Virus record (IMG/VR): IMGVR_UViG_2778261165_000018
Coordinates: 1 to 11,868 of that record
Strand: one strand, 5' to 3'
Source of the DNA: a virus
Taxonomy: Duplodnaviria > Heunggongvirae > Uroviricota > Caudoviricetes
Length of the DNA stretch: 11,868 nucleotides
Part shown: positions 343-2,163 of the stretch, piece by piece
How the letters are laid out: every line of letters starts with the position of its first letter
Numbering within the stretch: position 1 is the stretch's first letter
Made by a program: the position numbers and the translations under genes
Notes under the pieces: model-generated
The model's input: only the letters and a program-made list of their open reading frames with translations
What the model was told of the DNA's origin: nothing
The model's database searches: none

Positions 343-370
343 TTACCTAAATAGCCTTTTGATTTCCAAT

Positions 371-412
371 AAAAAAACCGCCTCAGTTCTTTCACCAGAA
401 CGGGCGGTTTTT
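371..412. terminator. Intrinsic terminator downstream of yebY, bidirectional in form
   Basis: A7 run (371-377), GC-rich hairpin CCGCC...GGCGG (378-407) with inner stem GTTCT/AGAAC, then T5 (408-412). A-run before and T-run after allow termination in both directions. Confidence 0.7.
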
Positions 413-486
413 AACATTTAAGCTGATGACTACCGCGCTTTTTATTGACCATTTTGCACGCAAACTGGAAAACCTGGCGTCGTCAT

Positions 487-496
487 CTATTCTTAA
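487..496 (+). promoter_or_regulatory. Sigma-S type -10 element (CTATTCTTAA) for the downstream small RNA
   Basis: CTATTCTTAA is a 9/10 match to the RpoS-type extended -10 (CTATACTTAA) and includes the -13 C. Hexamer TATTCT at 488-493 puts the predicted start near 500. Confidence 0.45.
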
Positions 497-499
497 AGG

Positions 500-603
500 G
501 CAAGGCAACTAAGCCTGCATTAATGCCAACTTTTAGCGCACGGCTCTCTCCCAAGAGCCATTTCCCTGGACCGAATACAGGAATCGTATTCGGTCTTTTT
601 TTA
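500..603 (+). ncRNA. sdsR: Candidate SdsR (RyeB) RpoS-dependent small RNA, about 104 nt
   Basis: Predicted start about 500 (GCAAGGC...). Internal palindrome GCATTAATGC (about 518-527), hairpin GGCTCT/AGAGCC (542-559), and terminal hairpin GACCGAATAC/GTATTCGGTC (569-595) followed by T7 (596-602). No ORF with an RBS. I recall sdsR/ryeA lying next to yebY in E. coli and Salmonella. Confidence 0.55.
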
Positions 604-686
604 ATTGTATTTAAAATCAATCAGTTGCAAACGTCTTCCCGAAATTCCCCGAAATTTACTCGAATTTCTGTATTCCGGTCTTTTTT
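586..686. other. Candidate prophage attL region: two core-like 17-mers, IHF consensus site and tandem 10-bp repeats
   Basis: GTATTCGGTCTTTTTTT (586-602) recurs as GTATTCCGGTCTTTTTT (670-686). IHF consensus WATCAANNNNTTR matched at 615-627 (AATCAATCAGTTG). Three 10-bp-phased repeats CCCGAAATTC / CCCGAAATTT / ACTCGAATTT at 638-667. Integrase stop lies 47 bp further in, at 734. Confidence 0.4.
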
Positions 687-733
687 GGTTATATCACAAC
701 CAAAACACATTTAACAATCCATTTACGTTAAAA

Positions 734-1810
734 TCAGAGCAGTAAGTACGTTTTTTCTCGCTCATCAAGATACATTTTTGTTGTCTTCTCCGATGTGTGA
801 CCAAGTAGGCGCTGGGCAAATTCTTCTCCACATGTTTCTTTGTACAATCGTCCAGCCAGACTTCTGATCTCGTGAAAAGTTGGTGGGTTTTCACTGAACT
901 GGATACCTGTTAATTTTCTGGCTGCGACAAATTTTTTTGTCAGGCCATCCGGGTGAATGCTGCCGTCAGGGCTGTTTTTTCTAATCCCGGCACTGATTAG
1001 ATAATCTCCCCGGCTTACCAGGCGGCACCGTTCAACTACTGTACCAAGCCGTAGACCAGCGACAGGAAGGCTGAGTGACAGGGGGATAGCAATCATCATT
1101 CCTGTCTTAATTTGCCTGATGTGGAGACGATCATCATAAATATCACTGAACCGCATATTCGTTATGTCTTCGCGACGTTGTCCTGTTACAAGGGCTAAAT
1201 CCATAGCTAATGGGAACCATGCCGGCAGTTGATCTGCTGCCTCCCTGATGCAGTTGTATGTCTTTAGTTTCAGTCGTTCTCTTGTAACTACTATTTTCGG
1301 TGCTCTTGTTGGCGTTACTGGATTTTGAGATATACGTCCTTCAACAATGGCCTCGCGAAACATATCAGACAACACAGAACGCATTGATCCTGCCATTGTG
1401 TTTTTCCCTCCTTCAATCCACAAATCAAGAAACTCGGCAATATGGCGAGTTGTTATTTCTGTCAGTAAAATCCCTCCCAATTTTTCTTTTATTGTCTCCA
1501 GTTGATTTACCCGAATTTTATAAGTATTTCTGGACACTTTTCTCCTTATAAGAATCGTTTTGTAACGTTCAATCCAGTCTGCCATAGTAAATGAGTCGAA
1601 CCCTTTAAGCTTTTCAATTAAGGCAGCAGGAGAGTAGTTTTTGTATATATAATGATTTGCTTCAATTGCCTGCGCTACTGCATCTCTTCTTGAAATTTTA
1701 CCTAGTGTAAATTCTTCTTTCGTCAGAGGGTTGCGCCAGTAATATGCTTTGTCCCTCCTTCGATATGTTAAGTTTTTAGGCAAATTGGGATCGTATTTTT
1801 TCCGCTGCAT
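734..1810 (-). CDS. int: Lambda-family tyrosine integrase, 358 aa
   Basis: Collinear with lambda Int as recalled: N-terminal arm-binding region ([15 protein letters not shown]), catalytic-region motifs ([40 protein letters not shown]). RBS GGAGAAG 8 nt upstream of ATG at 1810. Confidence 0.9.
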
Positions 1811-2057
1811 GTTTTAACTTCTCCAGTAACGGACTGTCTCTCCCTTGTCGCCCATTAGGCTGATGGTGTGTTATATCGGTATCAACCTTATTTGGGTTGA
1901 TATAGAAAGCCTCCGGAACCACTCTGTAACTCCTCCCGTGTAGTTCAGGTGCAGGATAAATGTTTCCATTCCTTGCCCATCGTCTCAGCGTTGATATTGA
2001 TGGTGGGTTATCCGGATATCTGAGTTTTCCCCACGTTTTGAGTGTCACAAGATTCAT
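1776..2057 (-). CDS. xis: Excisionase (lambda Xis-like)
   Basis: Motif TLRRWARNGNIYPAPELHGRSYRV resembles lambda Xis (ETVRRWVRECRIFPPPVKDGREYLF). 3' end overlaps the int start by 35 nt as in lambda. Start chosen at the ATG at 2057 (RBS AAGAGG 7 nt upstream); the ATG at 2063 is too close to the RBS. Confidence 0.7.
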   Translation of the reverse strand: MNLVTLKTWGKLRYPDNPPSISTLRRWARNGNIYPAPELHGRSYRVVPEAFYINPNKVDTDITHHQPNGRQGRDSPLLEKLKHAAEKIRSQFA

Positions 2058-2163
2058 TGCCATACCTCTTACGATATGACCGCCAGTAAATATACAGAAT
2101 ACTGGCGGGTGTGGTTGATTTTTAATAATCAGCTATGAAGTTCTAATTTGTATATAATGCAAC

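Follow-up and report, generated by a model that had tools for sequence, protein, structure and literature searches.

A C′-like repeat beyond the arm-type sites of prophages at the sdsR terminator

Phages are described as integrating in the last ∼23 bp of ryeB/sdsR in Salmonella (Balbontin et al. 2008, J Bacteriol 190:4075, as summarised in PMC7380047 and PMC3603311). PhiW104 of Salmonella Typhimurium DT104, at ryeA/ryeB, has an attachment (att) sequence internal to ryeA, and the 5′ part of ryeA is reported to be altered in the lysogen (PMC7380047). Phage 21/e14 in icd is mentioned among phages that target gene 3′ ends (PMC3603311). The locus compared here lies in an 11,868 nt stretch of Caudoviricetes DNA (the window; IMG/VR record IMGVR_UViG_2778261165_000018), where the sdsR small RNA (sRNA) gene meets a prophage that encodes a tyrosine integrase (Int). 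A 17-mer from the 3′ end of sdsR recurs there 84 bp further into the prophage. The position of the two copies in the phage attachment site, and the possible role of the second, are considered below.

The attachment site at the sdsR terminator

The repeat was first noticed by a prediction made from the letters alone, and a repeat search finds it as described: GTATTCGGTCTTTTTT recurs downstream with one extra C, start to start 84 bp apart. The first 17-mer (586-602) is GTATTCGGTCTTTTTTT and the second (670-686) is GTATTCCGGTCTTTTTT, which has the inserted C and one T fewer. In Markov simulations, a one-edit match of the 16-mer arose in 10 of 200,000 random 138 nt sequences of local composition (∼5e-5), and in 2 of 3,000 window-sized sequences searched on both strands (∼7e-4). 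The first copy is the 3′ arm of the sdsR terminator with its T-run, and its reading as the 3′ half of an sRNA terminator agrees with Rfam and with the fold, where the stem spans 568-596 (−15.8 kcal/mol, z −3.9). The second copy was said to lack the upstream stem arm. Folds give it no hairpin partner and no significant hairpin (z −0.6 for 640-700, −0.8 for 640-720), folds of 640-733 on both strands are no better than shuffles, and the terminator scan of the window does not call it. An intrinsic terminator at the second copy was rejected on these grounds, and because the U-run is not kept in relatives. Segments 573-584 and 664-675 are 92% complementary and were considered as an inverted pseudo-core made of the third arm repeat and the second copy. 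The left flank is not kept in other lineages and the pair overlaps an arm repeat, so the resemblance is treated as coincidental.

The window is 100% identical to part of E. coli Z1323CEC0001 (NZ_CP148507.1), where yebY-sdsR and pphA are separated by a prophage of ∼41.4 kb whose far end lies between pinE and pphA. Window positions 343-603 are matched by all 5,426 complete E. coli genomes and the sequence beyond 603 by only 228 of them. The right junction is also found in 228, equal to the count for the left, and this bears out the prediction of a prophage end. The insertion falls within the last ∼23 bp of sdsR and the shared segment is repeated at the other prophage end, as at the described hot spot. 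From its sequence, the element is read as a prophage with a Rac-like lambdoid early region, whose left junction (attL) is at 577-736.

The point of strand exchange was mapped by a four-way alignment of attL (the window), the empty bacterial site (attB, from BL21 and K-12), the right junction (attR, from the same genome as attL) and the phage site (attP) of record PP818812.1. The sole block common to all four is ACAGGAATCGT, at 577-587. To its left, attL has the base of attB (T576) and attR that of attP (A). To its right, attL follows attP (588A, 597T, then AATTG...) and attR follows attB (G, C, then ATCTG...). Because only this block is identical in all four sites and its flanks swap partners, the exchange is placed inside 577-587. 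This interval overlaps just the first two bases of the first 17-mer, and phage DNA begins at 588; thus the first 17-mer is not the crossover core but the C′ half-site with its T-run. The sdsR gene is chromosomal at 503-587 and phage-supplied at 588-602. The host and phage forms of the terminator have equal predicted energies, at the value above, and the U-tract reads UCUCUUUUU in the host and UCUUUUUUU in the lysogen.

The perfectly inverted stem arms, GACCGAATAC and GTATTCGGTC, flank AGGAATC. In the lambda family the overlap of Int is 7 bp. From this arrangement, the stem arms of the terminator are taken as the inverted core-type half-sites B and C′ around a predicted 7 bp overlap, which is the classical layout.

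The Int of PP818812.1 is 98% identical, and this record carries, as one contiguous stretch, the P arm, the core, the first copy, the candidate integration host factor (IHF) site, the three repeats, the second copy and int. Since both copies lie in this attP, the second copy is phage DNA, not a scar or a chromosomal feature. The comparisons that the prediction had proposed agree with this: attR carries a 15/17 version of the 17-mer, and empty-site genomes hold one copy and lack the 84 bp, their match to the window ending at base 603. It is very likely, judging from the aligned sites, that both copies belong to attP, that crossover takes place at 577-587 and that the first copy serves as the replacement 3′ end of sdsR. 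The original prediction had made one copy the crossover core and had offered a replacement 3′ end for the other; the replacement end stands, for the copy whose phage alleles begin at 588, and the crossover core has to be given up. The record PP818812.1 is named ‘Actinobacillus phage vB_Apl-pPE4’. Its int/attP region is 96.6% identical to the E. coli prophage and its attP core fits the sdsR terminator of enterobacteria; Actinobacillus, the host given in the record, seems doubtful.

To the right of C′, the sequence resembles the P′ arm of lambda. Int matches the arm-binding domain PF09003 (28.1 bits; cut-off 22) as well as PF22022 and PF00589, and is 38.6% identical to lambda Int over residues 9-355 and 41% identical to HK022 Int over the full length. 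The perfect IHF consensus that had been reported is present and is the only match in the window, yet 0.73 matches are expected there by chance, and it is not significant alone. It lies at +33 to +45 from the centre of the overlap (O), compared with +30 to +42 for lambda H′, and relatives retain a consensus match at this position, in one orientation or the other. The three phased repeats, described as 10 bp apart, start at 638, 648 and 659, a phasing of 10 and 11 bp. Their offset is +56 to +85, compared with +52 to +82 for lambda P′1-3, so that H′ and P′ match lambda within 3-4 bp.

The motif CYCGAAWW has 13 matches in the 49.9 kb locus, which is about the chance expectation overall. Six of the 13 make up two same-strand triplets, one at each prophage end (window 638-667; L001 42583-42622), and from the motif counts the chance of two such triplets is estimated as well below 1e-5. 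Three arm repeats are present in every relative. The variant is lineage-specific and common to all repeats of one attP (CCCGAAAT, CCTCGAAAT, ACTCGAATT, GTCCGAAAA, ACACGAAAA and ATCGAAAT), and its cores among lineages are CCCGAA, CTCGAA, GTCCGAA, ACACGAA and ATCGAA. A variant shared within each attP is what co-evolution with one DNA-binding domain would predict. The suggestion that the repeats are arm-type sites gains support from the lambda geometry, the triplet in the P arm at attR and the arm-binding domain of Int. The phased repeats are very probably arm-type sites, and the IHF consensus is probably H′.

The second copy among integrase relatives

Some 260 loci with an Int 47-100% identical to that of the window, taken from species-representative genomes and IMG/VR scans, were compared together with three phage records. 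The hosts are Escherichia, Shigella, Salmonella, Citrobacter, Scandinavium, Buttiauxella, Serratia, Rouxiella, Brenneria, Phytobacter, Kluyvera, Enterobacter, Leclercia, Lelliottia, Huaxiibacter, Siccibacter, Mixta, Pantoea and Erwinia. Nearly all of these loci are at the sdsR terminator. A C′-like 11-mer stands directly after the third arm repeat in almost all relatives; the E. coli and Salmonella types have GTATTC(C)GGTCT and most others ATATTCGGTCT. Down to ∼50% Int identity the second copy is found after P′3 in, among others, Salmonella, Citrobacter, Serratia, Buttiauxella and Rouxiella, and also in Brenneria, Kluyvera, Enterobacter and one bat-gut phage.

The distance between the copies is nearly fixed. 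In a first survey the start of the second copy was 82-85 bp from that of C′, or about eight turns of B-DNA. Among 53 representative lineages, chosen to have spacers less than 75% alike, the best ungapped match is 83-87 bp from C′ in 50; the other three have no clear second copy and give a spurious match at 78-79 bp. Among the 53, the second copy has a mean pairwise identity of 0.73, compared with 0.98 for C′ and 0.52 for the spacer. Compared with the C′ of its own lineage, the second copy gives P = 0.001-0.006 per lineage with shuffled queries. The extra C comes and goes among close relatives. The int stop codon is directly behind the second copy (1-2 nt after it or overlapping) in most lineages with a short tail, at 9-22 nt in a few, and at ∼50 nt in the E. 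coli and Salmonella types. This pattern of conservation suggests that the second copy is likely to be a selected, functional element of attP.

Variants of the arrangement were also observed. In the clade at 47-57% Int identity, L026-L028, L031 and many IMG/VR loci have an extra partial copy, TTCGGTCTC, at ∼+38 from C′, just before the first arm repeat. In one E. coli-type prophage (L051, IMGVR_UViG_2728369554_000022) exactly the 84 bp between copies is lost and a hybrid, GTATTCGGTCTTTTTTGGTTATATC, is left; IHF site and arm repeats are absent. Such an attL should be unable to excise, or the loss could be an assembly artefact. Among the 25 top-ranked matches listed in RefSeq E. coli none has the deletion, and all are of the normal two-piece form.

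A possible role for the second copy

In the mechanism proposed here, a lambda-family Int would target the sdsR terminator and exchange strands in the terminator loop within 577-587, most likely at the overlap AGGAATC (579-585). All DNA from 588 rightward would be that of the phage, and the first 17-mer would restore the 3′ arm and U-tract of sdsR in the lysogen. A canonical lambda-type P′ arm, with H′ and P′1-3, would follow C′, its triplet being matched by another in the P arm at attR. The second 17-mer would be a direct copy of the C′ half-site placed right after P′3, some eight helical turns from C′. There it could be bound by the core-binding and catalytic domains of the protomer whose N-terminal domain sits on P′3, and so might anchor or pre-position that protomer and make Int loading on the P′ arm more stable. 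In lambda, the protomer bound to the P′ arm goes on to engage attB.

These Int domains are considered the likeliest binder on three grounds: the likeness of the second copy to C′, its independence of the arm variant, and its fixed helical phase. With regard to the arms, the element stays TTCGGTC beside CTCGAA, CACGAA, ATCGAA or TCCGAA repeats. With regard to the core, the Serratia fonticola-type loci L020, L238 and L256 have the C′ GTACTCGGTCT, which matches the host stem variant, and the second copy ATACTCGGTCT; L229, a different phage in the same host type as L020, has T at both C′ and the second copy. The prophage L019 of S. rubidaea NCTC12971 (LR590463.1) has a target other than sdsR and lies upstream of a katG-like gene. 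Its C′ position is occupied by GATAGGTATACTTTTT, and GATAGTTACTTTTT follows P′3 at a distance of 83 bp from it, with arm repeats and geometry unchanged (the first CGAA is at +54). IMG/VR contigs that carry the L019 Int end at the int stop, and a 14-mer scan of viral contigs for its attR or empty site gave random matches only. Two Pantoea loci with another target show a weak 7/11 match at the predicted offset. The second copy is thus conserved and core-like by sequence comparison, and strict covariation with C′ is seen in two lineages only.

Further lineages with targets other than sdsR were sought in three IMG/VR scans, and almost all relatives proved to be sdsR-targeting. The exceptions are L242, L278 and L291, which have cargo genes between int and att, and L146 (IMGVR_UViG_3300011215_000014), which has the Pantoea-type C′ GTATTGGGTCT and is inserted inside a fosA-like glutathione-transferase gene. 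The L146 junction, in the last 150 nt after int, reads GGTCGGATAC-TGAATGC-GTATTGGG, and is apparently a secondary-site integration that disrupts the fosA-like gene. A rule by which the first base of the second copy (A/G) tracks the last base of the host B site (T/C) had looked promising for Serratia and E. coli. It was rejected, as it fails in Citrobacter, Brenneria, Kluyvera, Phytobacter and L303.

Several findings weigh against a core-type site. The C′ half-site is GTACTCGG in the E. coli-type L065 and L088, and it tracks the host stem variant as GTTTTCGG in L044/L140, GTATTGGG in L035/L040/L145/L215 and GTATTCAG in L276/L283; the second copy is unchanged in all of these. Conservation of the second copy far exceeds that of the true C site in attP, which is odd if both are simply core sites of Int. 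In the 47-57% clade the element is ATATCCTGTCT, which is well conserved and only 8/11 like C′ (P ∼0.05). The core of L019, with GATAGGTATAC as the predicted crossover-adjacent sequence, was placed by geometry only. Lambda and HK022 have no C′ copy after P′3, where the int stop overlaps P′3, and so offer no experimental precedent.

Other explanations of the second copy were considered. The element might be a functionless by-product of attP evolution, derived from C′ by short-tract conversion or template switching and persisting by linkage. The deletion in L051 indicates that the copies do interact as repeats, and the variable extra C would also fit. This explanation is improbable, given that the distance has been kept fixed as the adjacent spacer diverged to ∼52% identity, and that a direct repeat able to delete the whole P′ arm should be counter-selected unless useful.

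A role in RNA-level control of int is a slightly poorer candidate and is regarded as unlikely. The complement of the second copy, in int mRNA 3′ of the stop codon, would pair with the 3′ arm of SdsR or with a read-through core hairpin, in a sib-like or sRNA-mediated manner. The closeness of the int stop in most short-tail lineages and a complementarity to 11-14 nt of SdsR agree with it, as does the covariation in L019 and L020, which would keep pairing with their own cores. It fits less well with the ∼50 nt that separate element and stop codon in the E. coli and Salmonella types, and the common variant ATATCCTGTCT would give mismatches rather than wobble pairs. Minus-strand folds of attL and attP RNA, from the 3′ end of int to the core, are no better than shuffles (z −1.8 and −0.4) and show no pairing of the second copy with the core, and the partner strand of SdsR is locked in its −15.8 kcal/mol terminator.

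A fourth arm-type site in inverted orientation was also considered for the second copy. Read on the opposite strand it is GACCGAATAT, which resembles CCCGAAAT; this sequence contains the CCGAA of the arm repeats and matches the GTCCGAAAAT type at 8/10 positions, and the second copy pairs with the arm repeats in an RNA fold. The reading was rejected as quite unlikely, because TTCGGTC is constant whatever the arm variant and because in L019 the arms are unchanged and the element lacks CGAA and resembles the core of that phage.

A back-up half-terminator, which would insulate int from antisense read-through from the strong sdsR promoter, is most unlikely. It would account for the T6 run kept in E. 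coli-type phages, but the run is T4 or absent in other lineages, L019 has no stem partner, and, as stated above, neither a significant hairpin nor a terminator call was obtained.

The original prediction had also offered a scar, a leftover attL or attR of an earlier or tandem integration, and this can be dismissed: sdsR is a known insertion hot spot (PMC7380047; PMC3603311) and tandem prophages do occur there in Serratia (L011/L017, L042/L036), but both copies lie in a contiguous phage attP with only one at empty sites, their position and sequence are conserved across the diverged lineages of the 53-lineage survey, at a fixed distance in dozens of relatives, and real tandem junctions hold a full attP of P arm, core and P′ arm rather than an 84 bp remnant. 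The tandem prophages, in Serratia montpellierensis (L011/L017) and Serratia aquatilis (L042/L036), have related Ints and different arm-repeat variants. Their junctions are attP-like hybrids, with the P arm of one prophage and the P′ arm of the other.

Taken as a whole, an attL at the sdsR terminator with the second copy as a conserved component of attP is the favoured explanation, held with some reserve. The more specific proposal, that the second copy is an auxiliary core-type half-site that acts through the core-binding domain of Int, is plausible but remains tentative. More speculative is the view that Ints of this clade use a sixth binding element, a core-type half-site beside P′3 and eight turns from C′ that co-evolves with the target; this might hold the catalytic body of the P′3-bound protomer before attB capture, or lock the attL intasome.

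Neighbouring features and comparison with known systems

The coordinates of the features are collected in Table 1. The window opens with yebY (1-342), its first open reading frame. Leftward genes from 734 encode the tyrosine integrase, excisionase, ralR/RalA, recT and recE. The RalA antitoxin sRNA is at 2168-2346 (Rfam, 215.8 bits), and ralR is encoded on the other strand; the two form a Rac-type type I toxin-antitoxin pair, carried here outside the Rac site. Between the second copy and int, a TTATAYCACA block and a downstream TTTAACA are kept in all relatives with the ∼50 nt tail. An exact 9-mer, TTAAAATCA, is found at 611-619 in the IHF region and at 728-736 across the int stop, 117 bp apart; in this AT-rich stretch the recurrence is probably due to chance.

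Table 1. Features at the left prophage junction in the window
Feature	Position	Strand	Basis and remarks
ryeA (sraC), partial, antisense to sdsR	462-606	-	Rfam RF00101, 179 bits
sdsR (ryeB) sRNA gene	503-602	+	Rfam RF00111 SdsR_RyeB, 118 bits, full length
sdsR intrinsic terminator	568-596	+	11 bp stem, 7 nt loop AGGAATC; terminator scan, fold, inverted repeat 569-578/586-595 (100% complementary)
B core-type half-site (predicted) ACCGAATAC	570-578	.	host-derived, same in empty-site genomes; attP counterpart C = GACGAAAAC
Crossover interval ACAGGAATCGT	577-587	.	bounded by T576 and A588 (attB/attR have G)
Predicted 7 bp overlap O, AGGAATC	579-585	.	the terminator loop; centred between inverted half-sites, register inferred
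First 17-mer: C′ half-site (586-596) and T-run	586-602	+	phage alleles 588A, 597T (host G, C); same in PP818812.1 attP
IHF consensus, candidate H′	615-627	+	AATCAATCAGTTG, perfect match to WATCAANNNNTTR
Arm-type repeat P′1 CCCGAAATT	638-646	+	sequence, repeat search
Arm-type repeat P′2 CCCGAAATT	648-656	+	sequence, repeat search
Arm-type repeat P′3 CTCGAATTT	659-667	+	sequence
Second 17-mer, distal C′-like attP element	670-686	+	phage-borne, 84 bp from C′; conserved part 670-681, GTATTC(C)GGTCT
Inverted repeat TTTTGGTT/AACCAAAA, 8 bp, around TTATATCACA	683-705	.	repeat search
int, lambda-family heterobivalent tyrosine integrase, 358 aa	734-1810	-	Pfam PF09003, PF22022, PF00589
xis, lambda-type excisionase, beside int	1776-2063	-	Pfam PF07825; RefSeq annotation of identical record

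The insertion has consequences for the genes that surround sdsR. In K-12, the sdsR terminator is followed ∼55 nt further right by the −10 element of ryeA (TATGGT), and transcription of pphA comes from read-through that starts at the sdsR promoter (PMC6610125). Comparison of the −10 mutagenesis primer of that study with locus L002 assigns the K-12 ryeA promoter, with the initial ∼55 nt of the gene, to the attR side. The separation of sdsR from these sequences concerns window positions 577-606 and, at attR, L001 42740-42900. With 41 kb of prophage between sdsR on one side and pphA and the promoter and 5′ end of ryeA on the other, the 228 lysogens should show loss or alteration of the RyeA antitoxin and of the pphA expression driven from sdsR. 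A minus-strand promoter-like site at 604-631 (TTTGCA, a 16 nt spacer, TACAAT) overlaps the IHF site and points antisense to sdsR. Its score is 9/12, and chance alone would yield about one site of this quality. In arms of the Salmonella type a perfect TATAAT occupies the corresponding position. The site could give a RyeA-like RNA a replacement start brought in by the phage.

The mapping of the crossover shows that sdsR, a sigma-S sRNA, ends in 15 nt of phage DNA in ∼4% of complete E. coli genomes. If Int binds the distal element, the intasome has an added component, and there is a constraint on the retargeting of heterobivalent integrases. A sixth element, if there is one, would serve as a dock within attP for tuning integration and excision, and would have to be rewritten at each change of target. 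Many diverged attPs directed at one target also provide a natural system in which the evolution of arm sites and core sites can be compared.

Most of the finding is textbook site-specific recombination at a known hot spot. The 11 bp mapping in E. coli, the breadth of the clade across the Enterobacterales and the distal C′-like element are undescribed in the available literature, which includes Balbontin et al. (2008) in the form of summaries. The Salmonella relatives in the survey share a 23-24 bp block with the sRNA end, in line with the integration of PhiW104 in the last ∼23 bp of ryeB/sdsR. The summaries of PhiW104 give the shared att segment rather than arm architecture or a second copy. 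In E. coli, the host and phage segments differ at two bases, and this narrows the crossover to 11 bp.

The GenBank record of lambda has a feature ‘int 4’ (27814-27854) ∼30 bp beyond P′1-3 as read from the sequence, which was not used as evidence. The present system resembles lambda and HK022 in its three-domain Int and adjacent excisionase, in the inverted half-sites around a 7 bp spacer, and in a candidate IHF site and three contiguous arm-type repeats at nearly the same offsets, with such repeats in both arms. It differs from lambda in that the core is an RNA terminator hairpin, of which B and C′ are perfect inverted repeats. As with phages that target tRNA genes or icd (phage 21/e14), the phage supplies the downstream part of its target and so leaves a complete gene. 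In the present case an sRNA terminator is targeted and just ∼15 nt of it are replaced, and ryeA and pphA, unlike sdsR itself, are not restored.

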